From assembly GCA_041082215.1 (NCBI GenBank), contig JBDOIF010000041.1, forward strand, positions 62,001 to 126,000: a stretch of 64,000 nucleotides of DNA, read 5' to 3'. Position numbers and translations under genes: made by a program. This document shows positions 11,555-61,650 of this stretch, one piece after another; position 1 is the stretch's first letter, and each line of letters starts with the position of its first letter. The DNA is from Anaerolineae bacterium (GTDB lineage: Bacteria; Chloroflexota; Anaerolineae; B4-G1; DUEL01). The notes beneath the pieces were generated by a model that had not been told where the DNA came from, did not search any database, and worked only from the letters and a program-made list of their open reading frames with translations.

Positions 11555-12346
11555 TTACTCCTCCCCGCCGACGGCCTCCAGGGCTTCCACCACGACCTGC
11601 GCCTCCGCCACCGCCTGAGGGGCGGCCTCATACACAGCGATCCCCCTCAGGTCCGCCTCCACGATCTGAGGGCTGGCGGAGAGATAGCCGATCACCGGCA
11701 GCGGGCTTCGTCCAGCGACAAAAGCGCGGTCGGCCTCTGAGCGAATCCTGTTCCCCACCGCATACAGCCGCCTCAGGCCCAGGTCGTGGGCCAGATCGCG
11801 GATGCGTTCGGCCACCTGGAGGCTCCGCTGGCCCGGCTCCACGACCACCAGCATCGCATCCACCGCCTGTGCGGTCGCCCGGCCCAGGTGCTCCACCCCC
11901 GCTTCCATGTCCATGATCATCACCTCGTTCCGGTAGAGCAGGAGGTGGGTCACCAGAGCCTTCAACAGGGCGCTCTCCGGGCATATACAGCCAGAGCCGC
12001 CCGCCTCGATCGTCCCCAGCCTGAGCAGTCGGACGCCGCCGTAGGAGATGCTGAAGCGGTCCGGGATGTCGTCCACCCGGGGGTTCAGGCTGAAGAACCC
12101 GCCGTAGGAGCCGGGTTTGGCCCCCGTCCGTTCATAGATCAGCTCCTCCATCTCCGCAATGGGCATCAGCTTTTCGAGCAGCTCGGACGGAAAGCCCAGG
12201 GCCCCGGCCAGCCCTCCGGCGGGGTCGGCGTCAACGGCGATAACGTCGCGCCCCTTCCCGGCGTAGATGTGGGCGATCAGCGCAGCCAGCGTCGTCTTGC
12301 CGACGCCCCCCTTCCCGCTGATGGCAATCTTCCTTAATCCCCCCAT
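11555..12346 (-). CDS. cooC: CooC/AcsF nickel-insertion ATPase
   Basis: SGKGGVGKTT, GSGCICPE and DMEAGVEHLGR motifs. Confidence 0.92.
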   Translation of the reverse strand: MGGLRKIAISGKGGVGKTTLAALIAHIYAGKGRDVIAVDADPAGGLAGALGFPSELLEKLMPIAEMEELIYERTGAKPGSYGGFFSLNPRVDDIPDRFSISYGGVRLLRLGTIEAGGSGCICPESALLKALVTHLLLYRNEVMIMDMEAGVEHLGRATAQAVDAMLVVVEPGQRSLQVAERIRDLAHDLGLRRLYAVGNRIRSEADRAFVAGRSPLPVIGYLSASPQIVEADLRGIAVYEAAPQAVAEAQVVVEALEAVGGEE

Positions 12347-12357
12347 CGGCCCATCCC

Positions 12358-13773
12358 TCAGAGAAGCCCTTTTCCCTGCAACAGCGGACGGGGGTCTACC
12401 AGGTTCTTCCTCAACTCCGCCACCTCCTCCCCCAGGCCAAAGGCGAGAGCCATCAACTGTGTGATGTAGAGGACCGGTATCTCGAAGTCAAGCCCCATCT
12501 GCTTCTGTCGGTCCGAGATGTTGACCTGGCACAGAGGACAGGCGGTGACGATCAGGTCCGCCCCATACGCCTTCGCGCTCTTGAGAATCCGGGCAGAAAG
12601 ATCCAGCGCCACGGGGGTCTGGGTGATCCCCAGGCTGGAGCCGCAGCAATCCGTCTTGGCCGACCAGTCAACCGGCTCTGCTCCCAGGGCCCCGACTACC
12701 TCATCCATACTGGTGGGATTCTCGGGATTATCCACCCCTGTATATTTGGGCGGCCGGGTCGTCGCGCAGCCGTAGTAGGAAGCCACCTTCAACCCCTTCA
12801 ACGGCTTCTGGACACGCTGACGGATAGCATCCAGCCCGGCATATGCAAGAAGGGTCTCCACCGCATGCCTGGCCTCGACCGTTCCCCTGTATCGGTAGCC
12901 GATCCGTTCTGCCACCTTATCGGCCAGCTCCGGGTTATGGCGGACCTCGTAGGAGCCAGCCCGGAACCGCTGGTAGCATCCCAGGCATGGGGCCACCACA
13001 TCCTCCAGCCCCATTCGCTCAACGAGCGAAAGGTTGACGACGGCGTAGTAGCCTGCCAGGACCGGGTCGGTGGTGTGGGCAGGGGTGGAGCCACAGCAGA
13101 CCCACCCGGGCGGCTCGACCAGCTCGATCCCCAGCGCCTGGCACACAGCGCGGAAGGTATGATCGTACTCCGTGGCGGTGGACTCCAGCGAGCAGCCAGG
13201 GTAGTAGGCGATCGTCTTCGGGCCAGCATCCACTTTCTGTACCCTCCTGGGGGGACGGACGAACTCCGGCAGGAGGCGGATCTTGCGCTTAAGGATCATC
13301 TCCACGCCCAGGTCCATATCCTTCATCGGCTGCAACGTCAGGACGTTCATCGCTGCCATCAGGCCCGCCTCGTAGAGACGGCCCGCTGCGCCGATCGTTT
13401 TGAGGAAGACCTGAGTGAAGAGTTCCACCTCACGGATGGGCGGCTTGATCCCCCGTTTCCGCGATTCGATCCGCAGCGTGTCCATCACGCCGGCCACGTC
13501 AATCCCCTGGGGGCAGCGGGTCGTGCAGGTGACACAGGCCGCACAGACCCAGGGGGTCTTCGCCTCAAGGACCCGTTCGTCGTTAAACTGAATCGCCCGC
13601 ATGACCTGATTGGGCAGGAGGTCCATATACTCTGCCACAGGGCAGCCGCTGGAGCAGCGCACACACTGATAACAGAGGTACGGGTTCGATCCGGTATGCT
13701 CCTCGACGATCTCAGCCAGCGTCTCCGTCGCCACACGTTCTCTTGTCGCCATGCTCGTCTCCCGTGCGACCAT
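12358..13773 (-). CDS. HdrC-HdrB fusion (2x[4Fe-4S] plus two CCG domains)
   Basis: CYQCVRCSSGCP and CAACVTCTTRCP, then YYPGC, VCCGS, PCLGC, YYGC, DCCGS, ACPLCQ. Confidence 0.88.
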   Translation of the reverse strand: MVARETSMATRERVATETLAEIVEEHTGSNPYLCYQCVRCSSGCPVAEYMDLLPNQVMRAIQFNDERVLEAKTPWVCAACVTCTTRCPQGIDVAGVMDTLRIESRKRGIKPPIREVELFTQVFLKTIGAAGRLYEAGLMAAMNVLTLQPMKDMDLGVEMILKRKIRLLPEFVRPPRRVQKVDAGPKTIAYYPGCSLESTATEYDHTFRAVCQALGIELVEPPGWVCCGSTPAHTTDPVLAGYYAVVNLSLVERMGLEDVVAPCLGCYQRFRAGSYEVRHNPELADKVAERIGYRYRGTVEARHAVETLLAYAGLDAIRQRVQKPLKGLKVASYYGCATTRPPKYTGVDNPENPTSMDEVVGALGAEPVDWSAKTDCCGSSLGITQTPVALDLSARILKSAKAYGADLIVTACPLCQVNISDRQKQMGLDFEIPVLYITQLMALAFGLGEEVAELRKNLVDPRPLLQGKGLL

Positions 13774-14756
13774 CAGACCTGCGGCCGTGGCAGGAGTCCC
13801 GCTCCCTCAACGATAGGCCGCACCGCCTCTTCCCACTCGATCGCCATAATATGCACGCCAGCGACCCCCTCGATCTCACGAAGCTGCTGGATCTGTTCGA
13901 TGGCGATGCGGATCCCCTCCTGTTGCCAGGCCTCGCGGCGAGCCTCCTTATCCTCCTTGGGGATGTTCTTCACCGCCGCATCCATCCGCTCCACGTACTC
14001 TTCAGCCACCAGCATGCCCGGAACCTTATCCCGCATATACCGGGCCGCGCCAGCGGACTTCAGGGGGCCGATCCCGGCCAGAATGTAGACCTTCTCGTGC
14101 AGCCCCATATCCACTACCCGCTTCATGTACTCCCTGAAGCGAGGAATGTCAAGGACGATCTGGGTCTGGATGAAGTCCACCCCGGCGGCGACCTTCTTCG
14201 CCAGCCGATAGGGGCGGAAGTCGAAGGGATCGGCGAAGGGGTTGACCGCTGCGCCGATGAAGAAGTGGGGCACCTCCCCTTTGATCGGGTCGCCGCACTG
14301 GAACCGCCCCTCGTCCCGCATTACCCTGACCATCTGGATCAACTGGACCGAATCCAGGTCGTGGACGTTCTTGGCCGTCGGGTGGTTGCCGAAACTCTGA
14401 TGGTCGCCCGTGAGGCACAGCAGGTTGCGGACACCCAGCGCGGATGCCCCCAGGAGGTCGGACTGAATCGCCAGCCGGTTCCGATCCCGGCAGGTCATCT
14501 GCGCGATCGGTTCGAGACCCTCCCCTATCACAAGGACCGCAGAGGCGATGCTGGACATGCGGACGATGGCGGTCTGGTTATCGGTAATGTTCACCGCATC
14601 GGCGACCCCCTTCAGCAGTTGCGCTTTGCTGCGGATCACCTGCGGGTCGGCGCTTTGAGGTGGGCCCAGCTCTGCCGTGACCGCGAAGTGGCCGGCTCGC
14701 AGGATCTTTTCCAGATTGCTGCCCGACTTGTAACTGCTGGTCCGTTCCTCAGCCAT
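13773..14756 (-). CDS. metF: Methylenetetrahydrofolate reductase, catalytic subunit
   Basis: TAELGPP, NITDN, TCRDRNRLAIQSDLLGA, LTGD and FIQTQ motifs. Confidence 0.95.
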   Translation of the reverse strand: MAEERTSSYKSGSNLEKILRAGHFAVTAELGPPQSADPQVIRSKAQLLKGVADAVNITDNQTAIVRMSSIASAVLVIGEGLEPIAQMTCRDRNRLAIQSDLLGASALGVRNLLCLTGDHQSFGNHPTAKNVHDLDSVQLIQMVRVMRDEGRFQCGDPIKGEVPHFFIGAAVNPFADPFDFRPYRLAKKVAAGVDFIQTQIVLDIPRFREYMKRVVDMGLHEKVYILAGIGPLKSAGAARYMRDKVPGMLVAEEYVERMDAAVKNIPKEDKEARREAWQQEGIRIAIEQIQQLREIEGVAGVHIMAIEWEEAVRPIVEGAGLLPRPQV

Positions 14757-14765
14757 CGTTCCACC

Positions 14766-15446
14766 TCATTCAGCGTGGGTTAACCGGAGGTCCTCCCGCA
14801 CGATCTTGCGCGGGCCGCCGTCCCGGCTTCGTTGCCAGTTCTTGGGCGGCTGGACCTCCAGGAGTCGTTCGACCTGTCCGAGGGCGATCGCCCGCTCCCA
14901 GATCAACTGCCAGGCGCAGGGTATGTCCGGGTTCACCTCGCACACCCCCCTCTGGGAGCCGCCACAGGGGCCGTTGAGCAACTGCTTGGAGCAGCGGGCA
15001 ATGGGGCAGATGCCGAAGGTCACTCCCAGGATACAGTCTCCACAGGCCTGACATCGCTCCTCCCACACCCCCTGCTCCTCCGGCAGGCCCAGGAAGGTTG
15101 TGTTGAGGCCCGGCAGGGTCAGGGTGGCTGGAAAGCGCTCGTTCATCGCCTGGACGCCGATGCCGCAGGCCAGGCTGAGCACCACATCGTACTCCTCCAG
15201 CCGCGGCTTGAGCGGATCAATATACTCCCATTCACATTGTCGCTGCACCGTGACCTCATCCACCTCCATCGGGTGGCCATCCAGCTTGCTCTTCATCCGC
15301 AGCGCCGAGGCGAGGATCCCCACCTCCTTCTCGCCGCCGGCGAAGCAGACCGTCACACAGGTGCCACAGCCAGCGACCAGCACCTTCCGGGCATTGCCCA
15401 GCAGGGCCATGATCTCTTCCAGCGGTTTCTGTTCACCTACAATCAT
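14766..15446 (-). CDS. metV: Methylenetetrahydrofolate reductase small subunit MetV
   Basis: GCGTCVTVC..GG, RQCE, ACGIGVQ, CQACGDC, CPIARCSK.LLNGPCGG, CEV...PCAW. Confidence 0.93.
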   Translation of the reverse strand: MIVGEQKPLEEIMALLGNARKVLVAGCGTCVTVCFAGGEKEVGILASALRMKSKLDGHPMEVDEVTVQRQCEWEYIDPLKPRLEEYDVVLSLACGIGVQAMNERFPATLTLPGLNTTFLGLPEEQGVWEERCQACGDCILGVTFGICPIARCSKQLLNGPCGGSQRGVCEVNPDIPCAWQLIWERAIALGQVERLLEVQPPKNWQRSRDGGPRKIVREDLRLTHAE

Positions 15447-15499: not shown

Positions 15500-15922
15500 T
15501 CACTCCTCTCGCAACGGATTCGGTCCCAACGCCCGCACCTTCTCCGTCATCTCCCTGACATATTCGGCGAACTGGACCGCCATCGCCGAGGAGAGGTTGA
15601 CCATCCGCACCCGTCCTCCGCCCAGCCCGATCTGATCGAGCAGGTCGGCCAGGTAGGCCACCCTTCTTTTGGCGTTGACATTACCCTCCAGGTAATGGCA
15701 CTCTCCCTCCAGTCAGCCGGCCACCATCAGGCCGTCAACGCCCCGCTCGAAGGCGTGGAGCATCTCCACCACCTCCACCCGGCCCGAGCATGGGACCTCG
15801 ACGATACGGACGTTGGGGGGGTACCGCAGCCGCATCGCTCCGGCCAGGTCGGCGGCAGCGTAGGCGCAGTGACGGCAGCAAAAGGCCAGAATCTTCGGCT
15901 CGAATGCGTCTCCCTCTGCCAT
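15500..15922 (-). CDS. mvhD: MvhD-like [2Fe-2S] protein containing selenocysteine (in-frame UGA at 15713-15715)
   Basis: The ORF track stops at ...GLMVAG*. The frame continues LEGECHYLEGNVNAKRRV...GPNPLREE*. The UGA aligns with the Cys in VACPLGNCH and GGCHPGDCH of the two paralogues in this window. Confidence 0.9.
15679..15697 (-). promoter_or_regulatory. Bacterial SECIS-like hairpin
   Basis: CAUUACC-UGGAG-GGUAAUG, a 7-bp perfect stem whose G-containing loop starts 23 nt after the UGA. Confidence 0.7.
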
Positions 15923-15938: not shown

Positions 15939-15986
15939 ATGGCCCAATGGCCCAATGGCCCAATGACCCGATCACCCAATCACCTA
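15939..15986. repeat. Octamer tandem repeat at a gene junction
   Basis: atggccca x3, atgacccg, atcaccca, atcaccta; overlaps the hdrA stop. Confidence 0.75.
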
Positions 15987-18900
15987 AACCACAACCGCAT
16001 CCACCTTCGCCTCGATCTGCACATCCCGGTAATGGAGCAACTGGATGGCCTTCGCCGGGCACTCGCCGACGCAGACGCCGCACCCGTGACACTGAGCCGG
16101 TTCGATGTAGGCTGCGCCGATGATCCCTCCCACCCCTGTCAGGTCGGCACGGATCTGCGGGACGTGGTAGGGACAGATGCGGACGCAGGTCAGACAGCCG
16201 ACGCATTTCTCCGCATCCACCTGAGCGACGATGCCGCCCACTTCCAGGTAGTCCCGGCTCAGGATCGTCGCTGCGCGGGCAGCGGCGGCCTGGGCCTGTG
16301 CGATCGCCTCCCCCAGGAACTTGGGGTAATGGGCCATCCCGGCCAGGAAGAAGCCGTCGGAGGCAAAGTCCACCGGCCGCAGCTTGACGTGCGCCTCCAG
16401 GAAGAAACCATCCAGGTCCACCGGCAGTCGGAGTCGGGTAGAGAGCCCCCGTGCTCCTTCCGAAGGCACCACGGGCATGCTCAACACCACCAGGTCCGGC
16501 TGAAGGACCAGCTCCGTACCCAGCACCGGCTCCCACACCCGAACCTGCAATCTCGAATCGGCGACCTGCACCTGTGGCTTGCGGTCAAAGTCGTAACGGA
16601 TGAACACCACCCCGGCCCGCCGGGCCTCTTCGTAGATACGCTCCTTGAAGCCGAAGGTACGGATGTCCCGATAAAGGACGATCACCCGGGCCTTCGGGTT
16701 ACGCCGTTTGAGCATCAGCGCGTTCTTGAGGGCGGTGGTACAGCAGATGCGGGAGCAATACCGCTCGGCCGGACCGATGCACTGGATCATCACAACCGAC
16801 TCCGGCAGGTCCTTTCCCTCGGCCAGGCGCTCCTCGAACTCCTGTTGCGTCAGGATGCGCGGGTCGCTGCCATAGCCGTACTCCGGCCCCCGGTACTCCT
16901 GCCCGCCCGTAGCGACGATGGCGACGCCGTGGCGCACCTCCGACTCGCCCCGGGGTCCCCGCAGGCGGGAGGTGAAGTTCCCCACAAAGCCCCCGGTCTC
17001 CAGCACTTCTGTATTGAGATGGACCGTGATCAGCGGCTCCGCTTCGACCTGGGCGATCAATTCCTCGGCATAGGCGCGGGGATCGAGCCACACCCGTCCT
17101 CCAACCCCTGTCGCCTCCTGTAGCGAATAGCGAAGATGGAGCAGATTGCCTCCCAGAGAACCCGCCCGCTCTACCAGATGGACGGGGAAGCCCTGTCGGG
17201 CCAGGGTCAGGGCAGCGTTCATCCCCGCTGCTCCACCGCCGATCACCAGCGCCGTCTTCTGGACCTGTACCTGCGTCTTGTAGAGAGGTTCCAGCCGGGC
17301 AGCCTTCGCCACCGCCATCCGGACCAGGTCTTTGGCCTTCTCGGTGGCCGCTTCCCAGTTGCCAGGGTGGACCCAGGAGCACTGGTTGCGAATATTGGCC
17401 ATCTCAAAGAGGTTGGGGTTCAATCCGGCCTGGCGGATAGCATCCTGAAACAGCGGCTCGTGGGTGAGGGGGGTACAGGCAGCGACGACCACCCGGTTCA
17501 GCCCCTTTTCACGGACGACCTCCGCGATGTGGCGGATGCTATCCTGGGAGCAGGTGTACAGATTGTGCTCGGCATGAGCCACGCCGGGCAGTGTGGCCGC
17601 ATAAGCCGTCACCGCCGGCACATCCAGAAAGCCAGCGATATTCGATCCACAATGGCAGACGAAAACGCCGACCCGTGGCTCTTCGGTGGAAATATCCCGC
17701 TCAGGCGGCCAGACTACTTCCTCGGTCTCCGTCCAGCGGGCGGGGGCCAACAGCAGGCCCGCCAGCCCGGCCGCCCCGCTGGCCTCCACCACCGATTCGG
17801 GGATGTCCTTTGGCTCGTGGAAGGGTCCCAGGGCGAAGACCCCCGCCCGGCTTGTCTCCAGCGGAGCGAAGGGGGTTGTCCGGCAAAAGCCGTAGTCGTC
17901 CAGCTCCACCCCTGCCCGCCGCCCCAGGTCTCGCGCCGCTTCGGGGACCTCCATCCCTACGGAGAGCACCACCAGGTCGAAGGCTTCCTCACGTAGCGCA
18001 GGCTGACAGCCCGCGCCATCTGCGGGTTGAGAGCCTGCGCCACCGTCCACGTACCGGATGACCAGGTTACGGGTCTTCGGGTCCTCCTTTACCTCCGAGA
18101 CCCGGCAACGGACGAATCGGATCCCGTACCGTTCCTTCGCCCGTCGGTAGAACTCCTCGTACCCCTTGCTGAAGGCCCGCATATCCATCAAGAAGACGGC
18201 GATCTCGGTATCCGGCTCGTGCTCGATGGCGAGGATGGCCTCTTTGAGGGCGTACATGCAGCAGACGGAGGAACAGTAGTCGTGCTTCTGATCGCGGGAG
18301 CCAACGCACTGGATGAAGGCGATGCGTTTGGGCGTCCGTCCGTCGGAGGGGCGCTGGACGTGGCCCAGGGTGGGGCCGGAAGCGTTGAGGAGCCGCTCGA
18401 ACTGTAGGGAGGTGACGACGTTGGGATAGCGGCCCCAGCCGTACTCCCCGGCCTTCTCGGCGTCAAAGGCCGTGAAGCCCGGGGCCAGCAGGATGGCGCC
18501 GACATCCAGCTCTATCGTCTGCTCCACCATGTCATGATTGACGGCTCCAGCCTGACAGGCGTAAACGCAACTCAGGCACTCCGAGCAGATGCCGCAGGCC
18601 AGACAGCGAGCCGCCTCCGCCTGGGCCCGCTCGTCGGTGTATCCGGCGACCACCTCCTCGAAGGTGGAAAGCCGCTGCTCGACCGGCATGACTTCCATCG
18701 GGACGCGGGGCTGGATTTTGACCTCGCCGCGCGCGACCCGCTCCTCAATCTCGGCCCGGGAAAGTTCCACCACCGGCAGTTTGGGCCTTGCCGGTAGCTC
18801 AAGCTCCTCCCCCTGCAAATACCGATGGATCGCCTGTGCGGCCCGGTGACCGGCGGCGACGGCCTCGATGACGAACGCCGTCCCGGTGGCGACATCGCCG

Positions 18901-20540: not shown

Positions 20541-20567
20541 CCCAGTCACCCACTCACCCACTCACCC
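20541..20567. repeat. Octamer tandem repeat at a gene junction
   Basis: cccagtcacccactcacccactcaccc, overlapping the mvhD stop. Confidence 0.65.
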
Positions 20568-21005: not shown

Positions 21006-21030
21006 ATCCTCCTCCAGAAATCCGATATAC

Positions 21031-21080
21031 AAGTCACCCAGTCCCCCAGTCACCCAATCACCCAGTCACCCAACTCCCCA
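21031..21080. repeat. Octamer tandem repeat (cagtcacc) at a gene junction
   Basis: aagtcacc cagtcccc cagtcacc caatcacc cagtcacc caactccc, spanning the hdrA stop. Confidence 0.75.
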
Positions 21081-46699: not shown

Positions 46700-46726
46700 T
46701 TTGCCTCCTCAGCAATCTCGAATCCG

Positions 46727-47650: not shown

Positions 47651-47679
47651 TTCATACCTCCTGTTTCCCACCTCACGTT

Positions 47680-51268: not shown

Positions 51269-51285
51269 GCGCGTGATGGATTGCC

Positions 51286-51360
51286 TCCCCCTCCTCCCGT
51301 CCCCTCCCCCTCTCCCCGGCGAGGGGAAAGGGGGAGGGGTAAAGAAGGGGGTGGGAGGGT
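51286..51360. repeat. Pyrimidine/purine REP-like hairpin between acsC and acsV
   Basis: cccctccccctctccccggcgaggggaaagggggagggg inverted arms within a longer imperfect hairpin. Confidence 0.55.
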
Positions 51361-52700: not shown

Positions 52701-52729
52701 CTTCTCCCTCCTCGCAGGAGAATCCTGCG

Positions 52730-53906: not shown

Positions 53907-56171
53907 CTAGAACAGGGACGGCATGGTCAGGGCGGGATGGCCCTTCTCCTCCAGGAACTGGAGCAGCCCTTCCACGTCGGTGCAGATTGTCTCGTCGGCT
54001 ACCTTATCCAGGAAGTCGGGCTCCCCGATCCGCTCGCAGACCTGCCTGAGCTCTTCGGCCATCGTCTGCTTGAGGAAGGAGGACATCCAGACCACCCGCT
54101 TGAAGCCGCCGTCGGCGGAGATGAACTTGGGGCTGGTCAGATAGTACTTACCGACCCCCATGATCCCCGGTGTCTGCAGGCCGCCGCCGGCCATACCGGC
54201 CAGGGTGGAGAAGGTCATCCCGGCAGGGGTCATGCTCGGGTCCTCCCGGCTGACGACCATCACCCCGTTGGCCTCGGGGATGACCATGACGATGCACTCG
54301 AAGCAGCCGCAGGCGGTCATCGGGTTCTCCATAATGGAGTACATCGAGACCGTCTCCACAGTGCCCTGGGAGGCCTGCCGGGCGTACTCGTTGATCCCTG
54401 TGAAGTACCCCCTCTCCGGGTCCAGGCACTGCCCCTTAACGATGGGCTGGTTAGGCCCGGTGGGGTTGATCTCGTAGGAGGCCTTGCAGTCCAGCCAGTT
54501 GTACGCCCCGCACAGCCCCAACCGCTGAGGGCTGACCACACAGACGTGGGTAGGGGCAAAGGACTGGCAGAGGATGCAGGAGTAGAAGGTGTCCACCGCC
54601 TCGTCGGTCAGGTCGGCCAGGCGGCGGTTGCGTCGGTCATAGGCTGCCCGCGCCTTCTCCAGCCACTCGGCATGGAGCTGCGGATCGGTGATGATCTTCA
54701 CCTGCACCTTGTCCACGATAGCGCCGAAGTCAGCGTGGAGCCGGGCGTAGAGGATGTCGCCGAAGTGGCGGAGGTTGAATCCCTTCTCCGCCGCCGCTTT
54801 CGAGATGCGGATCCAGGCGATGTCCCGCTGGCCGATATGCTGGACGCCGTTGGCCCCGTTGACAAAGTAGTGGATCTGCCGTTCCAGCACCGGCTCGAAG
54901 TCCTCCTGCATCTTCCGGCCAGCCACCTCGACCAGGATCCCCAGGTCCATCGCCCCACCCTCTTCGACATTTTCAAAGCCGGGGCCGATGACCTCGATCC
55001 TGCCATCCTCCACCTGGTCCATGGGGACCATCCGCAGGTACTCGAAGGCGCGGCTGTTTTTGCCGCCGAACTCGACCCGCATGTCGGCCCGGCGGACCAC
55101 CTCACCCTCGAAGGCGGAGCCATACGGCACGGGGATGGGGACCTCGGTGATCTTGACTTTGACACCCCGGACCTCGATTGCCCGCTGGACCAGCTTGGCG
55201 GCCTTTTCTGTGTCCGTCTCGGCGTCAATCTCGTTCCACGGCATGGAGATGACGTGCTCGTACTGAGTGACGCCGGTGGGCAGGATCTGGGGGATGACGG
55301 TGTCGGCGATAGTGGGGAAGCCGTAGGAGATGGCCCCCGCGGCGGCGGCGTATTTGAGGTCGTCCACCTCGCCCATCGCCAGGACGAAGGCGAAGACCCG
55401 GTACTTGTTGTAGAGGAGGATTTCCCGCCACTGGCCGGGCTTGAGGCCGCCGAAGGTGAGGGCGGAGCGGGTGGCGAACCCCAGGGCGTAGATAGCGGAG
55501 ATGGTGTCCCGGCCGAAGGGGACGATGTAGGTATCGTACCCCATCTCCACCCCTTCCTCGCGCAACTGGTCAATGATGGAGCGGCCGTTGACGTTGCCGG
55601 AGAGGAAGATCAGGATGTTGCGCCGCTGGAGTTCGCGGATGATAGCGACGGCCGCCTCGTTGCTGGGAGCCGCGCCGACGATGGCGGCGAAGCCTGGCAT
55701 TCGGCCGTCCACCAGCTGGATACCCCAGGAGCGGAGCTGAATGTCGTCTATGGGGCCGTTGAGGTGGCCGCCCTCCAGGCCAGGATAGTCGGTCCCACCG
55801 GCCAGCTCCAGCCCCGGATATAGCTCCGGCTGCTGGCCCAGCGCGAAGCGGACCCCCTCGATCGTCTCCGCCGCCAGGAGCGTCGCCATCCCGCAGTCCA
55901 GCGTCTCCCCCAGGTAGGGAGTCCAGAGCTGCTCATCCGGCAGCGGGTGGAGCAGCTTCTTGGCGTGTTCCACCACCGGCACCAGGTCATCCAGCTTAGT
56001 CACCTGATGGGCCAGCATGCCGTAGATGACCGGCAGGTAGTAAGCGGTGTTGGGGAAGGCGACCGGGGTATCTCCGCCCTTCTCGGCGATGGCCCTGTTC
56101 AGCAGTTGCTCCGCTTCAGCGACCAGGGCGTTCGCCCCACGGATGGCTCGGGTTGCGATATATCGAGACAT
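53907..56171 (-). CDS. acsB: Acetyl-CoA synthase
   Basis: FPNTAYYLP N-domain; A-cluster ligands CILCQSFAPTHVC, LCGA and TACGCFEC. Confidence 0.97.
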   Translation of the reverse strand: MSRYIATRAIRGANALVAEAEQLLNRAIAEKGGDTPVAFPNTAYYLPVIYGMLAHQVTKLDDLVPVVEHAKKLLHPLPDEQLWTPYLGETLDCGMATLLAAETIEGVRFALGQQPELYPGLELAGGTDYPGLEGGHLNGPIDDIQLRSWGIQLVDGRMPGFAAIVGAAPSNEAAVAIIRELQRRNILIFLSGNVNGRSIIDQLREEGVEMGYDTYIVPFGRDTISAIYALGFATRSALTFGGLKPGQWREILLYNKYRVFAFVLAMGEVDDLKYAAAAGAISYGFPTIADTVIPQILPTGVTQYEHVISMPWNEIDAETDTEKAAKLVQRAIEVRGVKVKITEVPIPVPYGSAFEGEVVRRADMRVEFGGKNSRAFEYLRMVPMDQVEDGRIEVIGPGFENVEEGGAMDLGILVEVAGRKMQEDFEPVLERQIHYFVNGANGVQHIGQRDIAWIRISKAAAEKGFNLRHFGDILYARLHADFGAIVDKVQVKIITDPQLHAEWLEKARAAYDRRNRRLADLTDEAVDTFYSCILCQSFAPTHVCVVSPQRLGLCGAYNWLDCKASYEINPTGPNQPIVKGQCLDPERGYFTGINEYARQASQGTVETVSMYSIMENPMTACGCFECIVMVIPEANGVMVVSREDPSMTPAGMTFSTLAGMAGGGLQTPGIMGVGKYYLTSPKFISADGGFKRVVWMSSFLKQTMAEELRQVCERIGEPDFLDKVADETICTDVEGLLQFLEEKGHPALTMPSLF

Positions 56172-56187: not shown

Positions 56188-58176
56188 CTATTTCTTGCCA
56201 TACACAGCGGCGATCCGTTCCTCGAGCGGAAGCTCCAGCACCTCGCGGATCCGCCAGTCGCCGGACCGGCCCCACTTGGAGGGGTCGTATTCCGCCAGCC
56301 CCAGCGCAGCGCGCTTCCGGTCAATATGGGCCAGCGCCCGACGGACGATCTCCTCACCGTCGGGGATGAACTCCAGCCGCCCACCGACCTTCTTTTCCCA
56401 GCCGTCGCTGATCAGGCGGACCACCTCCTCGCTGCCCCGCACCGGCCCCTCGCCGCCCATGATGACGTAAGCGCCAGAAGCGACGCAGTAGGTGGCGATG
56501 GAGAGCGCCTTCTCGCTCATCCACTCCGGAGCCATACCGACGGCCGGGATGTCGGCGATGTCATCTCCCAGCCCGGTCTCGGTGGCCATCTGGGCCAGCA
56601 CGGTGAGGATGCGGGAGTTATCCACGCAGGATCCGAGGTGGAGCACCGGCGAGATGCCGATGGCTTCACAGACCTCGCGCAACCCTGGGCCGGCCAGCTC
56701 GAAAGCGGCTTCGGGCATCATGAAGCCGGCCTTTGCCCCGGCGATCGCCCCGCATCCGGTCTCCACCACCAGCACATCGTTCTTCAGGAACTGTTCGACC
56801 ACGTACCGATGGAGCTCATCCTGACACATGCGGGCGTTGTTGCAGCCGATGTTAGCCACCACGCCCCGGATGCGGCCAGCAACGATGGCGTCGTTGAGCG
56901 GGCGGAAGGAACCGCGGTAGATGCCGCCGAGGGCGTAGTCAATGTACTCGTGGGAGAAGCCGGGGACCAGGGGATTGCGGATGTCCGGGATGAAGGTCTC
57001 GCCCCGGAGCGGGAAGCGGTCAATCGCCCGGCGGACGATCTCCCTGGCGATCTCCAGCGCCCGCGATTCATCGAACTGGATGTGGGTGGCGCCGGTGATC
57101 CTCACCTTGGGCGAGGTGGTGATCAGCTCGGTGTGGAACTGCTCGGCGACCGGGACCAGCCCCTGCATGATGCACTGCACGTCCACCACCATCGCCTCGA
57201 CAGCGCCGGTGAGGATGGCCAGCTCCTGCTGGAGGAAGTTGCCCGCCAGCGGGATACCCTCCCGCATCAGCGTCTCATTCGCGGTGCAGCAGATGCCGGC
57301 CAGGTTGATGCCGGCCGCCCCCTTGCTCCTGGCATAGGCGATCAGCTCGGGGTCCTGGGCCGCAGCGACGATCATCTCCGAGAGGGTCGGCTCGTGGCCG
57401 TGGATGATGATGTTGACCATATCCTCCCGCAGCACGCCCAGGTTGGCCTGGGAACGGATCGGGGAGGGGGTGCCGAAAAGGATGTCGGAGATGTCGGTGG
57501 CCAGCATCGAGCCGCCCCACCCGTCGGACAGGGCGCACCGCATCGCCTGATCCAGCAGGTGCTCCGCGTCCTGATCGTTGCCGATGTGGGTGCGGTGGAG
57601 CAGGTCCACCACCTCCCGGTCAATACTGCGGGGGGTGATGCCCAGTTCGCGCCAGATCTTCTGCCGCTTGAGCGGGGCGCGCTTCACATAGAGCAGCTCG
57701 CCCTGTACGCGGCCGAACTCACCCAGCGCAGCCAGGGCCACGTCGCGGGCGATTTCGTTGATACCCCGCCCGTCCGTCTTGACCCCCAGGTAGCCCGCCA
57801 CCTCCATCAGCTTGTAGGGGTCGCGGATTTTGTAATCGGGCGCCTTACCCTCGGCCGCCTCCAGGAGCGCATAGGCCATGTCCCGGCCGTGGTCGGAGTG
57901 GGAGGCTGCGCCGACGGCGACGGCACGGCAGAAGTTCCGCGCCACGACCGTGGCCCGTGTCGCCCCACAGACGCCGCGCTCCGTCTTCCCCACCAGCCGG
58001 CATGGACCCATCGCGCAGTTTTTGCAGCAGAGGCCCTCGGAGCCGATAGGGCAGGGGGTGATGTCGTCGGCCCGGGCGAAGGAGGTCTCCACCTCCATCC
58101 GCATCGCGCGCTCCAGCATCGCCCGCGTTGCCTCATCCCGGCTGGCCTCTTCTGGTGTCCGCATTGCCTTTGGCAT
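56188..58176 (-). CDS. cooS: Anaerobic Ni-CO dehydrogenase
   Basis: C..G..G.CCKNCAMGPC, HSDH, HGHEP, GICCTANE, DVQC, GCNN, GSCVD and EWMSEKA motifs. Confidence 0.97.
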   Translation of the reverse strand: MPKAMRTPEEASRDEATRAMLERAMRMEVETSFARADDITPCPIGSEGLCCKNCAMGPCRLVGKTERGVCGATRATVVARNFCRAVAVGAASHSDHGRDMAYALLEAAEGKAPDYKIRDPYKLMEVAGYLGVKTDGRGINEIARDVALAALGEFGRVQGELLYVKRAPLKRQKIWRELGITPRSIDREVVDLLHRTHIGNDQDAEHLLDQAMRCALSDGWGGSMLATDISDILFGTPSPIRSQANLGVLREDMVNIIIHGHEPTLSEMIVAAAQDPELIAYARSKGAAGINLAGICCTANETLMREGIPLAGNFLQQELAILTGAVEAMVVDVQCIMQGLVPVAEQFHTELITTSPKVRITGATHIQFDESRALEIAREIVRRAIDRFPLRGETFIPDIRNPLVPGFSHEYIDYALGGIYRGSFRPLNDAIVAGRIRGVVANIGCNNARMCQDELHRYVVEQFLKNDVLVVETGCGAIAGAKAGFMMPEAAFELAGPGLREVCEAIGISPVLHLGSCVDNSRILTVLAQMATETGLGDDIADIPAVGMAPEWMSEKALSIATYCVASGAYVIMGGEGPVRGSEEVVRLISDGWEKKVGGRLEFIPDGEEIVRRALAHIDRKRAALGLAEYDPSKWGRSGDWRIREVLELPLEERIAAVYGKK

Positions 58177-58195: not shown

Positions 58196-58531
58196 CTACC
58201 ACTTGCGGAAGTCGCCGGACATCTCGATGTCGGCCCGATAGGTCTCGCTTCTGCGGAAGCCCAGCACTTCCCACCGTGGGTCCCGGGCCTTCTCATCCCG
58301 CTGGGCCAGAATGGGGGTCTCCCCCTGACCCACAGGATACCCGGCCTCGGCCAGGGCCTTCTCGATCGCTTCCCGGTTGATCCTGGCCGGGTCGTAGGCC
58401 ACCAGGACCTGTTTCCAGGCCGAACTGACGTATGCTTCCTCCACCCCATCCAGGCTCCCCAGCACGTCCCATACCTTAAGGGTGTGATGGTCAGCCCAGA
58501 GGAGAGGGACATCCAGCACAATCTTTTCCAT
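58196..58531 (-). CDS. HMA-fold small protein with DHH in place of CxxC
   Basis: VPLLWADHHTLKV...L..LDGV......V.YDP...I..AL..AGY follows the CopZ/HMA pattern. Confidence 0.7.
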   Translation of the reverse strand: MEKIVLDVPLLWADHHTLKVWDVLGSLDGVEEAYVSSAWKQVLVAYDPARINREAIEKALAEAGYPVGQGETPILAQRDEKARDPRWEVLGFRRSETYRADIEMSGDFRKW

Positions 58532-58604: not shown

Positions 58605-60458
58605 CTAGAACAACCCGACAACCTTGCCCGTCTTCAGGTCAATATCCACATCCACGAAAGCCGGGCGGCTGGGCAGGCCGGGCATCGTCCGCATCGCGCC
58701 GCAGAGCGGGTAGAGGAAGCCGGCGCCGACGCTGGCGCGGATATCGCGGATGGGCAGTCGCCAGCCCCGTGGAGCACCCTTGATTTTCGGGTCGTGAGTG
58801 AAGGAAAGGTGAGTCTTGGCCATGTTGAGCGGCAGTTTATCATAGCCCATCGCGGTATAGAGCTCGATCTTCCGCTCCGCCTCAGGCAGGTAGTCCACCC
58901 CGTCGGCGCGGTAGATCTCGCGGGCGATAGTCTCGATCTTCTCCTTGATGGGGATATCCAGCGGGTAGAGGAAGCGGAATCCATTGGGTTGCTCGCAGGC
59001 CCGGACCACCGCCTCGGCCAGTGCTGCGCCGCCCTCGCCGCCCTTGGCCCACACCTCGCTGATGAGGCAGTCGAAGGCGCCGGCCTTCATCGCTTCCTCT
59101 TTGATCATGCCGATCTCCCGGTCAGTATCCGAGTTGAAACGGTTGATGGCAACAACCACCGGGATACCGAACTTCTGGACGTTCTCCACGTGCTGGATCA
59201 GGTTAGGCAGCCCCTTCTGGAGAAGTTCCAGATTCTCCTCCGTGTAGGCGGGGTCAAGGGGCCGTCCGGGGATCACCTCGGGCCCGCCGCCATGCATCTT
59301 CAGCGCCCGGACCGAGCAGACCAGGACGACGCAGTTGGGGATGAGGCCGGAGTAGCGGCACTTGATGTCGAAGAACTTCTCCATGCCGCAGTCGGCGCCG
59401 AAGCCGGACTCGGTGACCACGTACCCATCCGGCCCCACCAGCTTAAGGGCGATCTGGTCGGCGATGATGGAAGAGTTGCCATGGGCGATGTTGGCGAACG
59501 GCCCGGCGTGGACGAAGGCGGGGGTGCCCTCCAGTGTCTGCATCAGGTTGGGCATCAGCGCATCCTTCATCAGGACGGTCATCGCACCGGCGACCTTCAG
59601 GTCCTCGGCCGTCAGCGGGCGCCCGTCTTTGCTGAAGCCCCAGACGATGCGGCCCAACCGTTCCCGCAGGTCCGCCAGTCCTTTGTAGCCATCCACCAGG
59701 GCCAGGATGGCCATAATCTCCGAGGCGACGGTGATGTCGTAGCCGGTGACACGGGGGACACCGTCGGTGCCGTAAGGGAGATGGGCCACCAACTCCCGCA
59801 GCGTGCCCGCCTCTTCCGGCAGCGGCTTATCAGCCTGCCCAGCCTGCAGACCGATGACCACGTTGCGCAGCGCCCGGTCGTTGACGTCCACCACCCGGGT
59901 CCAGAGGATGGAGTTGGGATCGATATTCAGGCGAGGGATCTCCGGGCAGAACTTCGCCAGTTGCTCATCGGTGAGTTGTCGCTCGTGGAGAATACGGGCA
60001 TCAATGGCCGCGGCCAGGAGGTTGTGGGCCACACCCACCGCATGGATGTCGCCGGTCAGGTGGAGGTTGAAGTCCTCCATCGGCACCACCTGGGAGTAGC
60101 CGCCGCCGGCCGCGCCGCCCTTGATCCCGAAGGTCGGGCCCATAGACGGCTGGCGGATGCAGGTGAAGACCTTCTTACCGATGTAGCCCAGCGCCTGGCT
60201 CACGCCGATGGTGGTGACGGTCTTGCCCTCCCCCAACGGCGTGGGGGTGATGGCCGTCACATCAACGTACCTGCCGTTGGGCCGATCCTTGAGCCGTTGA
60301 AGGACATCGAGATGGACCTTGGCCTTCCATTTCCCGTAGAGGTCAATCTCATCCTCCGAAAGGCCGATACTGCGGGCGACCTCGACGATCGGGATCAGGT
60401 CGGCTGCCTGAGCAATCTCGATGTCGCTTGGAACCGGATACACACGCTTGACTGGCAT
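58605..60458 (-). CDS. fhs: Formate-tetrahydrofolate ligase
   Basis: [51 protein letters not shown] and TMPGLP motifs. Confidence 0.98.
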
Positions 60459-60528
60459 CTCGTCTACCTCCTCTAGATTGGTGGATCATTCTAAGTTGCC
60501 ACAAGCAACCAGCTTCCAGCAACCAGCA

Positions 60529-61650
60529 TCAGGCCGACTCGCTCCGCCCCTCCGGCACCAGGTAGGCCGCCCGGGGCAGGAGGGAGGCGATCTCCACCTC
60601 CACTGCCTGACGCATCACCTGACCGGACAGGTGGAGGAGGGTATCCCCCAGGCTCCGTTCGATCACCATCCCTGCCAGACAGGGATAGTGATGGTGAAGA
60701 ATACCGGCCTGGAGCACCGCCTCACTCACCGGCATTCCCACCAGCTCCTCCGCCACGAACCGGGCGCAGCCGCAGGCGGCATCCCGCTCCACATCCACCT
60801 CTTTGATGACGCCGTCCTCACACCGGATGCGAAACACCGGCCGGCCGAAATGGCGGGCAAAGGCAGAGATCCAGGGGTTCAGATAGGCCACCCGCTGATG
60901 GCGGAGGTTGTAGCCGTCTTCGGTGAGAGAGCAGAAAGGGCGCGGGAAGACCGCCGCGACCCCCATCTGCCGTAACCGCTCCTCCAACTGGCGGACCAGC
61001 CCTTCTGGCAGCCAGGAGAGATGGTCCACCGGGGCGATCACCGCCTGTGCGCCGGCGCGGCGGGCGATGTCGGGGATCAACTGGGCGACGGCGGGGCTTT
61101 CACCGAGGGCCAGGATCAGATCGGCGGGAGGAACGTGGAGAGGGAGATAGCGGGCCGGGTCGTCCACCACCGCGGGCAGGTCCGGCGGCCGCCAGCACTC
61201 CACCGTCCACCCCTTCGGGCCATGGGCGCGGATGTTCTCGACGATCCGCTGGCCGTACCATCCCTGCACCAGGGCGAAGATACGCATCGCCGCCGGGCGG
61301 GGGCCTCCCCACTCCAGCGGCTGTCGGATCGCATCCACCAGGTCCTCCACCTGCCGGCCCACTTTGACCTGCTGGTAGTAGATACGGATGCGGTTATCGT
61401 CCAGATTCAGCCCGACAACCTTGATGCCGGACACCTCCCGGAAGAGGTAGGAAACGATGGATTCCTGCTCCTCGCCCGAGGCGCCGACCACGACGACATC
61501 TGGAGCCGCAGACCGAAGCCGGGAGAGGACGTCGGGGGTCATCCCCCCTACCCCAATGACCTCCAGCCCCGCTTGCTCCCGCAGGAGGGTCTCGACGCTC
61601 TCGGCAAAGAGCGAATGGCTGGTGAGGATAAAGACTCGACAGGAAGGCAT
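60529..61650 (-). CDS. Pseudo-receiver domain fused to DUF166 domain
   Basis: N-terminal ~115 aa receiver-like without the acidic pocket or Asp; C-terminal QG.YG.RI, DDP, PFCSL, FGRP, AACG, HHYPC, DTLLH. Confidence 0.7.
   Translation of the reverse strand: MPSCRVFILTSHSLFAESVETLLREQAGLEVIGVGGMTPDVLSRLRSAAPDVVVVGASGEEQESIVSYLFREVSGIKVVGLNLDDNRIRIYYQQVKVGRQVEDLVDAIRQPLEWGGPRPAAMRIFALVQGWYGQRIVENIRAHGPKGWTVECWRPPDLPAVVDDPARYLPLHVPPADLILALGESPAVAQLIPDIARRAGAQAVIAPVDHLSWLPEGLVRQLEERLRQMGVAAVFPRPFCSLTEDGYNLRHQRVAYLNPWISAFARHFGRPVFRIRCEDGVIKEVDVERDAACGCARFVAEELVGMPVSEAVLQAGILHHHYPCLAGMVIERSLGDTLLHLSGQVMRQAVEVEIASLLPRAAYLVPEGRSESA

Follow-up and report, generated by a model that had tools for sequence, protein, structure and literature searches.

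We found that the region between positions 61650 and 11555 of the analysed stretch (64,000 nucleotides of an Anaerolineae bacterium, hereafter the window) is a merger of two operons, one for the Wood-Ljungdahl pathway with a type IV methylene-THF reductase, and the other a class-wide operon for an Hdr-linked fumarate reductase. Our overall reading, to which we assign a probability of roughly 55%, is that this merger brings together about five HdrA dimers and a soluble fumarate reductase (SdhBA) that would act as a bifurcation sink, with no disulfide involved and reduced ferredoxin as the yield. The merger and the predicted docking are new; both modules were known in print beforehand, and the component parts were known or earlier hypothesised.

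The region comprises 41 genes, all on the minus strand, with intergenic gaps of at most 214 bp. The original prediction described a co-directional, often overlapping run; the genes are indeed co-directional, but "often overlapping" was too strong because just 8 of the 40 junctions overlap (some start codons were chosen by us). Its inventory was recovered (fhs, acsA/B/D/C/V/E, two cooC, folD and metV/metF; six hdrA, three mvhD, two hdrCB pairs, an HdrC-HdrB fusion, an HdrD-like and one FdhB/FlxC-like gene), although the third mvhD is complete only if an in-frame UGA is read as selenocysteine; a soluble SdhB-like/SdhA-like pair in mid-cluster was absent from its list. The first gene (60529..61650), encoding a receiver-like N-terminus with DUF166, is kept at the cluster head in relatives, and a LuxR/NarL response regulator gene (61756..62415, minus strand) precedes the cluster in six relatives' contigs. 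Sigma70-like sites lie around the regulator gene (62451-62424 and 61712-61684), and the count of promoter-like sites was not significant (5 vs 2.8 ± 1.8 by chance). A co-directional tail (8213..11550, minus strand) encodes a C39 peptidase-like protein, a conserved unknown protein (317 aa), and fumarase alpha and beta. Because the fumarase genes (8213-9757) lie past the bounds first proposed, the unit probably extends to about 8200; neither the weak terminator-like site at 8119-8105 nor the promoter-like site at 8202, before hppA, was above chance. The single RNA run yielded short contigs at low depth, and nothing longer.

The 5′ Wood-Ljungdahl block comprises fhs for formyl-THF synthetase (58605..60458; PF01268, E 2e-249), a gene for a small HMA-fold protein without CxxC that is kept between fhs and acsA (58196..58531; PF00403 at cut-off), acsA/cooS for Ni-CO dehydrogenase (56188..58176; TIGR01702, above cut-off), acsB for acetyl-CoA synthase (53907..56171; NF040764, above cut-off), acsD and acsC (corrinoid Fe-S protein) with acsV (RACo activator) at 49361..53692, and a radical SAM gene, cooC1, acsE and folD (45815..49364), where the block ends. 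Fhs, FolD, MetF, AcsE, AcsC/D and AcsA/B make up the bacterial Wood-Ljungdahl set, with FdhA genes elsewhere in the genome. The type IV core (11555..15446) consists of metV, metF, the fused hdrC-hdrB gene (12358-13773) and cooC2, and lies with hdrA5-mvhD2 (20562..24174), hdrA6 (15984..20501) and mvhD3 (15500..15922; selenocysteine at residue 70), for which a tRNA-Sec gene is present on the same contig. This arrangement matches the definition of type IV methylene-THF reductases, which asks for metV and metF in one cluster with hdrA, hdrB/C and mvhD (PMC8760232). HdrA5 is an alpha-beta fusion with no nucleotide module. HdrA6 (HdrL), also an alpha-beta fusion, has two HA4 motifs and an NfnB-like insert with an NADPH-like motif (GAGDVA..YYRR; PRK12771/gltA matches over residues 164-675), in agreement with the two FAD modules and NAD(P)H-oxidising module of type IV HdrA; an NAD(P)H site is therefore encoded within the window. 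MetVF-HdrCB may have alternative heads, HdrA5-MvhD2 without the module and HdrL-Sec-MvhD3 with it. Only two of the six HdrA adjoin MetVF, and the proposed organisation around methylene-THF redox held for these two sets alone: hdrA1, hdrA2, and the HdrC1B1, HdrC2B2, MvhD1 and FdhB genes fall outside it because they come from the class-wide fumarate reductase operon, which elsewhere stands apart from Wood-Ljungdahl genes. We agree that the direction of the methyl branch cannot be read from sequence; the fumarate arm looks reductive.

The inserted operon (45696-24240, 21.5 kb) lies between folD and hdrA5, and begins with hdrC1-hdrB1 (44402..45696). It continues with a K+ channel gene, a class V aminotransferase gene and an MNT-HepT pair as passengers (41257..44375), hdrA1 (39551..41260), a GNAT acetyltransferase gene with hdrC2 and hdrB2 (37499..39554), hdrA2 (34358..37453), hdrA3, an hdrD-like gene and hdrA4 (30002..34322), an arsenite-methyltransferase-like passenger (arsM, 29197..29964; PRK11873), mvhD1 (28702..29130; PF02662), and genes for an FdhB-like (FlxC-like) Fe-S flavoprotein-type adaptor (26759..27874), an SdhB-like protein (25959..26678) and an SdhA/TfrA-like flavoprotein (24240..25886), where the insert ends. 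The K+ channel, MNT-HepT pair and arsM were not found in the relatives' clusters examined, and the aminotransferase stands where family f2 has an alpha-half hdrA. The FdhB-like protein matches FdhB of 7bkb/9t1s/8rvu over its full length (E 1e-18 to 1e-21). HdrB1 has SdhE of MFR as its best NCBIfam match (179.5 bits, below the cut-off of 500), and HdrB reached 163-169 bits against a cut-off of 345 for the methanogen CoM-S-S-CoB reductase.

SdhB carries one [2Fe-2S] and two [4Fe-4S] motifs, with no [3Fe-4S] motif and no membrane anchor gene alongside. The best NCBIfam match of SdhA is TfrA, at 339.5 bits and below the cut-off of 718. The QYHPT, TE, PRD, HY and GHNRL motifs of SdhA align with Frd/Sdh structures, as expected for the dicarboxylate site of TfrAB, and we take these residues to form the active site. 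Asn replaces the covalent-FAD His in 39/39 motif matches (some loci belong to duplicate genomes); together with the two [4Fe-4S] motifs of SdhB, this points to fumarate reduction. From these motifs, SdhBA appears to be a soluble fumarate reductase with a non-covalent FAD site.

The six HdrA are 34-60% identical and all under purifying selection (dN/dS 0.08-0.25), ruling out near-identical recent duplicates, and an assembly chimera is ruled out by recurrence of the layout in relatives' contigs. Each HdrA module clustered in a tree with orthologues from other genomes, and 8/9 FAD modules carry the features of bifurcating HdrA (the bifurcation-associated Lys409 and Glu356 equivalents, with HA4 cysteines at FAD). 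These results uphold the prediction of several distinct HdrA-based complexes, but six HdrA overcount the machines because the genes encode complementary halves and fusions. We infer about five asymmetric dimers, A0-in-trans/A1, A2, A3/A4, A5 and A6. HdrA1 is a beta half: it has the N-terminal cluster domain, an FAD core bearing the Lys and a C-terminal ferredoxin, but not the Cys197 motif. Its alpha partner is probably encoded outside the window at C100:18024-19334, 83 kb off. HdrA2 (dN/dS 0.24) is a fused alpha-beta dimer whose BamE-like beta FAD module is without the Lys409 equivalent and the N-terminal cluster cysteines, and the alpha half HdrA3 and beta half HdrA4 form a split pair flanking HdrD. 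The N-terminal cluster domain and the Cys197 expected to complete it from the partner are distributed in complementary fashion in A3/A4, A5, A6 and A0/A1, a pattern that is degenerate in A2.

The hosts of the merged cluster are a group of Chloroflexota from hot springs and sediments. Among 13 genomes examined, the complete layout was colinear on one contig in 3 others from two families, and colinear as far as the contig ends in 5 more. The merger, with the insert after folD, is limited to two families of this order, and the operons are separate elsewhere in the class. G147, from a different family, has the window layout without the insert, and hdrA5-mvhD2 accompanies metVF without Sdh in both G147 and G118. 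Outside the order, sdh/fdhB/hdrB1 occurred in 0/10 Wood-Ljungdahl loci, and fhs/folD/acsA-E/metVF in 0/20 sdhA loci. These 20 sdhA loci included hdrB1 in 17 (contig ends truncate the other 3), the A0 and A1 halves together in 16, and fumarase genes in 11, with mvhD1 and fdhB absent from 6 uncut loci; the constant partners of SdhBA are HdrC1B1 and the split HdrA pair, not MvhD/FdhB. The set of HdrC1B1, SdhBA and the split HdrA pair was found in 68/251 sampled Anaerolineae genomes. Outside the order, acsB was present in 55/61 genomes with this SdhA versus 130/241 overall, and, in keeping with separable modules, 75 acsB genomes were without this SdhA, all counts being taken among related genomes. 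The two modules are separable within the order, an observation that goes against our reading: three genomes (G037, G031, G029) kept the fumarate block with the type IV block replaced by plain metVF, and in one (G039) the Hdr block was lost while the pathway stayed.

Complex prediction for HdrB1, HdrC1 and SdhB gave a score of 0.62 (runs of 0.62, 0.79 and 0.62), whereas the best of three controls scored 0.00, as did the complex with HdrB1 swapped for another chain. The score mark was reached by 116/157 solved pairs and 2/215 mismatched pairs in a calibration set up differently from this job, which used three chains and our own alignments. The runs shared at least 52% of contacts, partner pLDDT was at least 75, and SdhB C124/C127 lies opposite HdrB1 C9/C41. 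The model suggests that SdhB docks at the HdrB1 non-cubane cluster, where methanogens bind the disulfide. Against our reading, hdrB1 and sdhB are 18 kb apart within the window, and the HdrA1 alpha partner is 83 kb off. The SdhB ferredoxin domain resembles HdrC, a caveat on the docking model. A sequence search of the PDB found no SdhB-CCG complex; ETF on BamD, described in a preprint, is an earlier case of a protein accepting electrons at the non-cubane clusters of an Hdr (bioRxiv 10.64898/2026.04.10.717634).

The window, as first stated, encodes no hydrogenase, FdhA, FlxA, Rnf, Ech, DsrC or TusA; the genome (96% complete) encodes all of these but RnfD, group 4/Ech hydrogenase and DsrC. FeFe hydrogenase, citrate synthase and aconitase were likewise not found in the genome, nor was an Rnf or Ech respiratory complex of the kind that defines Rnf-/Ech-type acetogens. 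The only NiFe hydrogenases, one Mvh-type and one group 3b-like, are accompanied by a NuoBCDI set, and flxA and flxB with hdrABC, not found within the window, have a counterpart in a separate flxABC-like/hdrCBA-mvhD cluster on contig C83. The original prediction named neither the donors nor the disulfide substrate; enzymes for the donor side are encoded elsewhere in the genome (hydrogenases, Fdh, Flx, Nfn), and the SdhB-HdrB1 model implies that a disulfide is perhaps needless for the fumarate arm. In the mechanism we propose, a mid-potential donor (H2, formate or NAD(P)H) would pass electrons via an MvhD adaptor to the HdrA flavin, where they would be split. The high-potential electron would travel from HdrC1 through the HdrB1 non-cubane clusters and the modelled contact to SdhB and fumarate, which would stand in for the disulfide as high-potential sink, and the low-potential electron would reduce ferredoxin for CODH/ACS and 2-oxoacid oxidoreductases. 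The fumarase of the fumarate module would have been relocated to the cluster tail. The cell, without Rnf and Ech, would gain reduced ferredoxin, and succinate (towards succinyl-CoA, 2-oxoglutarate or propionate) despite having no citrate synthase or aconitase. A further-reaching reading seems to us distinctly unlikely: one wired network across the merged operon, with fumarate as the co-acceptor, in which SdhBA would dock on HdrB1 and possibly on fused HdrCB too, disulfide-free bifurcation at HdrA would supply fumarate-driven ferredoxin for CO2 fixation, and methyl-THF oxidation or methylene-THF reduction would be balanced, all in an acetogen-like cell without Rnf/Ech.

A credible though doubtful alternative is that independent operons were fused for co-regulation only, with an anabolic fumarate reductase fed by ferredoxin or NAD(P)H as a reductive TCA arm, and with neither bifurcation nor a Wood-Ljungdahl link. 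In the rest of the class, acsB and sdhA shared a contig in 0/55 genomes, and metV and sdhA in 0/47, consistent with mere co-location, as are the independent loss of either block within the order and korDABC after fumAB in 5 genomes of family f2. The minimal fumarate operons carry no mvhD, the adaptor that our reading places at the donor port, which also goes against that reading. However, the HdrA flavin Lys and Glu and all HA4 cysteines are retained in both halves, the merger is stable over two families, and SdhA carriers are enriched for acsB (55/61).

The HdrB cysteines bear on another, unlikely, explanation, in which HdrB1, HdrB2, HdrD and fused HdrCB would share a diffusible or protein-bound thiol/disulfide, e.g. 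a GcvH-like carrier bearing lipoate; the MTHFR complex would reduce the disulfide, and HdrB1/HdrD-SdhBA would re-oxidise the thiols with fumarate. All ten CCG cysteines are retained in HdrB1, HdrB2 and HdrCB, in HdrB1 as a thiol/disulfide enzyme would retain them and at odds with our reading. HdrD best matches the C-terminal part of TfrB in NCBIfam, the genome has three GcvH genes, of which one adjoins the Mvh hydrogenase, another Hdr-Flx cluster includes a lipoate ligase, and Tfr chemistry is on record from methanogens (PMC2754724). Nevertheless, no examined cluster contains a carrier gene, and the His after YGC of methanogen HdrB is missing from 60/60 matches. Furthermore, the model lays SdhB over the HdrB1 C9/C41 cluster, presumably the entry site for a thiol substrate. 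The order mvhD1-fdhB-sdhB-sdhA, seen in the window and most order-level loci, would suit SdhBA at the donor port via the FdhB-like protein and MvhD1 (like FdhA of methanogens), as would the methylmalonyl-CoA mutases, epimerase, carboxyltransferase and succinyl-CoA synthetase of the genome; confurcation would then push succinate oxidation uphill, in the manner of syntrophic propionate oxidation where the Wood-Ljungdahl pathway runs in reverse. We regard this as highly improbable: six uncut sdhBA operons are without mvhD1 and fdhB, FdhB-like genes stand beside HdrL/MvhD without sdhBA in four loci, the non-covalent FAD site and second [4Fe-4S] speak against succinate oxidation, and a +30 mV couple cannot serve as mid-potential partner of a disulfide.

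Compared with the type IV MetFV-HdrABC-MvhD of Moorella thermoacetica and the marine Anaerolineae form hdrA-mvhD-metVF-fused hdrCB (PMC5736913), the region shares an HdrL-type fused HdrA with NAD(P)H module, MvhD, MetV, MetF and fused HdrCB near acs, but differs in the second head HdrA5-MvhD2, the Sec-MvhD, the NADPH-like motif, and its placement within a 53-kb run that also carries a fumarate module. For Anaerolineae, a MetVF block with fused hdrCB was published by Sewell et al. in 2017 (PMC5736913); the merged layout is new. PMC8760232 gives bifurcation as still unproven for the Moorella enzyme itself. Clusters predicted in tubeworm symbionts (Hdr-Flx/KorABCD/TfrAB; PMC6315080, PMC11636981) and found in Cloacimonadota (Mvh-Hdr-TFR-OGOR-fumarase; PMC8542988) likewise combine a soluble TfrA-like flavoprotein and Fe-S subunit with hdr and fumarase, and bifurcation to fumarate and ferredoxin is a proposal there too; the operon described here differs in its split alpha/beta HdrA pair in place of a canonical HdrA, in being without Flx or hydrogenase, and in being linked to Wood-Ljungdahl genes rather than rTCA, judging by the missing citrate synthase and aconitase. 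TfrAB (Methanothermobacter) and type E SdhABEF (PMC2754724) also pair SdhA and an SdhB bearing a second [4Fe-4S] with a CCG-domain partner. Here, however, a stand-alone HdrB, accompanied by HdrC and HdrA, takes that part, SdhB has no CCG domain of the TfrB kind, CoM/CoB and an SdhE/SdhF membrane anchor are absent, scores fall under the TfrA/TfrB/SdhE cut-offs, and the FAD site is non-covalent, unlike type E succinate:quinone reductase.

Complementary and fused HdrA dimers are known from ANME (PMC9012536), and Cys197/N-terminal-domain complementarity is shared with these and with BamE-BamD-BamF of class II benzoyl-CoA reductase (bioRxiv 10.64898/2026.04.10.717634), which HdrA2 resembles in pairing an FAD module that bears the Lys with a degenerate one. 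Unlike the dimers described in those accounts, the five here lie in one region and, by a quick tree, arose at least three times independently, their fusions begin with the Cys197 half, and the predicted acceptor is SdhB instead of the ETF of Bam. The hdrC2B2-hdrA2 (HdrL in relatives)-mvhD1-FdhB-like set, which has no catalytic subunit of Fdh or hydrogenase, resembles Sfum_0819-0824 of Syntrophobacter fumaroxidans (PMC5947623), unlike which the present genome is without sulfate reduction and DsrC.

The locus shows that asymmetric HdrA dimers evolved repeatedly, with hopping of the NAD(P)H module, and bears on two acceptors: the one at high potential used by bacterial Hdr-like complexes that have neither DsrC nor CoM/CoB, and the second one of type IV methylene-THF reductase. 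Together with the split HdrA pair, HdrC1-HdrB1-SdhB-SdhA offers a small, defined test object for a specific prediction, that of a fumarate reductase bound straight onto an Hdr non-cubane cluster. If true, this would provide Wood-Ljungdahl bacteria without Rnf/Ech with a fumarate-driven path to reduced ferredoxin.

All 41 genes of the run from 61650 to 11555 lie on the minus strand; no gap between them exceeds 214 bp, and 8 of the 40 junctions are overlaps. The run belongs to contig C100 of a 3.53-Mb source genome (96% complete); GC content is even across the window, and hot-spring metagenomes contain its DNA. The gene inventory of the original prediction (Wood-Ljungdahl, hdr and mvhD genes) holds, and to it we add a soluble SdhB/SdhA-like pair (26678-24240), fumarase alpha and beta genes (fumAB, 9757-8213), an NAD(P)H module within the sixth HdrA (A6, or HdrL) and the selenocysteine of MvhD3. 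This selenocysteine is called because the UGA of mvhD3 is conserved (in 10 other loci, with TGC in one) and tRNA-Sec was found in the source genome; a SECIS-like hairpin 3' of the UGA was not significant (z -0.87).

The six HdrA paralogues (A1 to A6) are 34-60% identical to one another, and dN/dS against two relatives was 0.08-0.13, with HdrA2 at 0.24. Comparison of window 33001-53000 with other samples revealed contigs from two of them bridging the folD-hdrC1-hdrB1 junction (X2, 44952-46528; X5, 44980-46125), and identical gene order occurs in other genomes. Paralogue divergence and purifying dN/dS, together with these bridging contigs, therefore rule out both an assembly chimera and recent, near-identical duplicates, the two artefacts considered in the original prediction; a quick HdrA tree likewise excludes recent duplication. 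Contigs from an RNA run (X10) were short and covered 26 of 30 bins at depth 2-5, which DNA carry-over would fit, and promoter/terminator scans of 43000-62900 and 4000-23000 did not rise above shuffles. Several small features interrupt the run: a repeated element between hdrB2 and hdrA2 (37465-37504), where many unrelated contigs pile up to a depth of 198, and nucleotidyltransferase-type pairs inserted in register at 41257-42100 (MNT-HepT) and 27852-28665 (a 75-aa gene with DUF6036). Many such insertions lie between core genes in clusters of genus g5. A 317-aa protein (9835-10788) matching no Pfam or NCBIfam family is kept just upstream of fumarase, with 69-95% identity in relatives.

We then compared gene order across related genomes. 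Of 40 relatives, 31 yielded acsB, 28 SdhA and 27 MetV, every one of them from family f1 or f2 of the host's order and none from f3. The whole order stands on a single contig in 3 of the 13 first-fetched genomes (G014, G010 and G033, the last without hdrA1) and is kept up to contig ends in five (G012, G001, G008, G027, G011); G016 and G021 are partial and G025 is rearranged. Plain metVF replaces hdrA5-hdrCB in G037 (G031 and G029 are similar), and the Hdr block has been lost entirely from G039. Of 251 genomes sampled across the class, 68 held SdhA, 136 acsB and 98 window-type MetV. For genomes outside the order, the tables show 25 in which acsB and metV occur on one contig; sdhA is never on one with acsB (0 of 55) or with metV (0 of 47), and sdh, fdhB and hdrB1 are absent from all 10 fetched Wood-Ljungdahl loci. 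One of these genomes, G147, carries fhs-acs-cooC-acsE-folD-(one gene)-hdrA5-mvhD2-hdrL-mvhD3-metVF-hdrCB-cooC2, the window minus a 21.5-kb insert (the fumarate-Hdr operon, 45696-24240), and G118 has hdrA5-mvhD2-metVF-hdrCB without HdrL. Conversely, 20 of 61 outside-order sdhA loci, picked for long contigs, revealed a stand-alone operon, fumAB-hdrC1-hdrB1-hdrA(alpha)-hdrA1(beta)-[hdrC2B2-GNAT-hdrA2 or HdrL-mvhD1-fdhB]-sdhB-sdhA, with hdrB1 in 17 (the other 3 being cut), both HdrA halves in 16, fumarase genes in 11, and mvhD1 with fdhB in 13 but missing from 6 uncut loci; fhs, folD, acsA-E and metVF occurred in none of the 20. Absences in distant genomes rest partly on blastp/tblastn, because the gene caller, a hexamer model trained on the source genome, misses or truncates genes there. 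Insert-free Wood-Ljungdahl loci and stand-alone fumarate operons elsewhere indicate, from gene order, that the supercluster is a lineage-specific merger of two operons.

Further arrangements were seen in these loci. A probable AcsB-AcsD fusion (AcsB-matching ORFs of about 1220-1250 aa, no separate acsD call) occurs in f2 and some other Anaerolineae (L036-L037, G025:C25; L016, G033:C2; L026, G037:C8), and one Anaerolineae locus (L130-L131, G063:C50) reads korDA-hdrA-flxCBA-korB-hdrC-hdrB-sdhB-sdhA, interleaved as in tubeworm symbionts. At the Wood-Ljungdahl head, a 111-aa HMA-fold protein with WADHH in place of CxxC (58196-58531) is conserved in Wood-Ljungdahl operons of Anaerolineae, where its gene separates fhs from acsA; it is a candidate nickel chaperone for CODH/ACS. 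In most relatives a receiver-like domain-DUF166 fusion (60529-61650 in the window) heads the operon, preceded by a LuxR regulator, and a second, stand-alone DUF166 (C48:16880-17626) adjoins an Mrp antiporter operon.

HdrA halves were assigned by comparison with solved HdrA (5odc): an alpha half has the FAD core, TFPTxDCxxC with the Cys197 equivalent and an inserted ferredoxin, and a beta half an N-terminal cluster domain, FAD core and C-terminal ferredoxin. On this basis A3 is an alpha half, A1 and A4 beta halves, and A2, A5 and A6 alpha-beta fusions; complementary HdrA dimers are known from ANME and Moorella (PMC9012536). The likely partner of the orphan beta A1 is an orphan alpha (A0) at C100:18024-19334, kept at 72% identity or more in 24 of 24 f1 and 5 of 8 f2 genomes; genes of this type adjoin an A1-like gene in all five f2 loci fetched. 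A0 is not the direct orthologue of the f2 in-cluster alpha half (56-60% versus 72-89% identity), and the two are paralogues inside one clade. Ahead of A0 lies a transcarboxylase-like set with genes for a carboxyltransferase, carboxylase subunit B and a biotin carrier (C100:12958-19334), a context partly kept in G014. The quick tree (SH-aLRT support only) was built from 120 FAD-core segments of the window, its own genome and 19 further genomes, after removal of proteins of up to 350 aa, segments below 200 aa and duplicates. Each window HdrA module clusters with orthologues from other genomes, and A0+A1 (98), A3+A4 (91) and the fused types are placed in distinct clades, which suggests that asymmetric HdrA dimers arose at least three times. 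The HdrA cluster motif marks 13 genes genome-wide. An NfnB-like insert hops between A3 (G001, G025, L066) and the A2 slot (G037, G027, L070); we take its YRR motif as NADPH-like and CLES as NADH-like, and the window's insert has the NADPH-like motif, the same as the source genome's NfnB. The Lys409 equivalent is present in 8 of 9 FAD modules, the exception being the A2 beta module, which lacks it in the window and in 16 of 17 relatives' motifs listed. This resembles BamE, in which bifurcation is confined to the first FAD (bioRxiv 10.64898/2026.04.10.717634).

In the fumarate module, the best NCBIfam match of SdhA is TfrA, under cut-off; its dicarboxylate-site motifs are kept, and each of 39 matches has Asn in place of the covalent-FAD His. 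L-aspartate oxidase was rejected as its identity, a separate nadB-like gene being present with nadA/nadC on C39. SdhB carries motifs for one [2Fe-2S] and two [4Fe-4S] clusters, like type E enzymes (PMC2754724), and the module encodes no membrane anchor. HdrC1B1 and the split HdrA pair are the constant neighbours of SdhBA, so HdrB1+HdrC1+SdhB was modelled; the survey of 20 outside-order loci had led us to drop the idea that SdhB pairs with HdrD or FdhB. The predicted complex scored 0.62 (best of three controls, 0.00), with at least 52% of contacts agreeing between runs and partner pLDDT of at least 75, and replacing HdrB1 abolished the score. Of 157 solved complexes 116 attain the mark, as do 2 of 215 mismatched pairs, counts that hold only roughly because our own alignments and three chains were used. 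SdhB 122-128 (C124, C127) is predicted to contact HdrB1 8-14, 38-41 and 54-61 (C9, C41) and the HdrC1 C-terminal helix, a model that HdrB-HdrC likeness may favour. A sequence search of the PDB found no SdhB-CCG complex; the BCRII preprint offers a direct precedent for such a protein acceptor, ETF taking the high-potential electron at BamD non-cubane clusters with no disulfide (bioRxiv 10.64898/2026.04.10.717634). A GNAT gene (38982-39554) stays even in the cluster of G039, without any hdr genes, and an HDAC-family deacetylase lies downstream (4546-5574). A CBS-ACT gene (C80:20928-21569), which we take to be AcuB-like, recurs within outside-order fumarate-Hdr operons; acetylation control is possible.

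The genome encodes potential donors and carriers outside the window. Of its two NiFe hydrogenases, one is Mvh-type and lies with HdrA on C10, and the other, on C83, is group 3b-like. Its five molybdopterin enzymes include a Sec-FdhA that adjoins an HdrA-MvhD-FdhB-like cluster and an FdhF that adjoins a second CooS. An flxABC-like set beside hdrCBA-mvhD, NfnAB, and three genes each for TusA and GcvH are also present. A 30-kb redox region (C83:44600-75000) combines the group 3b-like hydrogenase, flxABC-like genes, hdrCB, mvhD, HdrD, two HdrA read through UGA, lipoate ligase, a formate channel, FdhB-like and Sec-FdhA. F420 was rejected as donor to the FdhB-like protein, as no CofE was found. NuoCD is the only complex-I-like large subunit, in a nuoB-nuoCD-nuoI set (C118:8479-11421) with no adjoining membrane subunits. 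RnfD, DsrC, FeFe hydrogenase, acetate kinase, Si-citrate synthase, aconitase and PF00056 malate dehydrogenase were not found in the 96% complete genome; a Re-citrate synthase motif scan gave no match but is weak, having overlooked an Iso_dh fragment found otherwise. Succinyl-CoA synthetase, two methylmalonyl-CoA mutases and a carboxyltransferase set are present, as presumably is an ADP-forming acetyl-CoA-synthetase-like gene, named from the start of its sequence.

We favour, at a probability of roughly 0.55, the insert as a soluble HdrA-linked fumarate reductase: donors encoded elsewhere would feed its HdrA via MvhD adaptors, fumarate would take the high-potential electrons and ferredoxin would be the low-potential product, while the tail would be a type IV methylene-THF reductase served by two alternative heads. 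Counting against it, each block is gained or lost independently of the other, and mvhD is missing from the minimal fumarate operons. Mere co-regulation of independent modules, compatible with SdhB docking, is a weaker but serious contender. Thiol-mediated coupling is rather unlikely, and succinate oxidation by SdhBA at the donor port is improbable.

Each module has been described or proposed separately. The type IV block with fused hdrCB is described for Anaerolineae (PMC5736913) and Actinobacteria (PMC7325909), and the type IV reductase is defined, its acceptor unsolved, in PMC8760232 and PMC5861303. Hdr-linked Tfr-like enzymes are proposed in PMC6315080, PMC11636981 and PMC8542988, and an HdrABC/HdrL-MvhD-FdhB-like cluster is described in PMC5947623. 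In the literature searched, mostly open papers without supplements, neither the joining of a Wood-Ljungdahl operon to one for an Hdr-linked fumarate reductase nor the binding of SdhB to HdrB was found described, and PMC6895022 and PMC11650866 contributed nothing specific; Text S1/Fig. S5 of PMC6315080 may be relevant to novelty, as may Fig. 2 of PMC5736913. The merged operon and the predicted docking thus appear new as far as found.

In five f2 genomes korDABC comes after fumAB. A set of korDABC, split alpha/beta hdrA pair, mvhD, hdrD, hdrC, hdrB and UGA-split hdrA lies at C7:53849-66812, and in G033 such a set directly follows fumAB at the supercluster end. Under the favoured fumarate reductase reading, the cell would require a reductive route to succinyl-CoA/2-oxoglutarate, and co-location of the two operons would suit a cell without Rnf or Ech that needs reduced ferredoxin for CODH/ACS.
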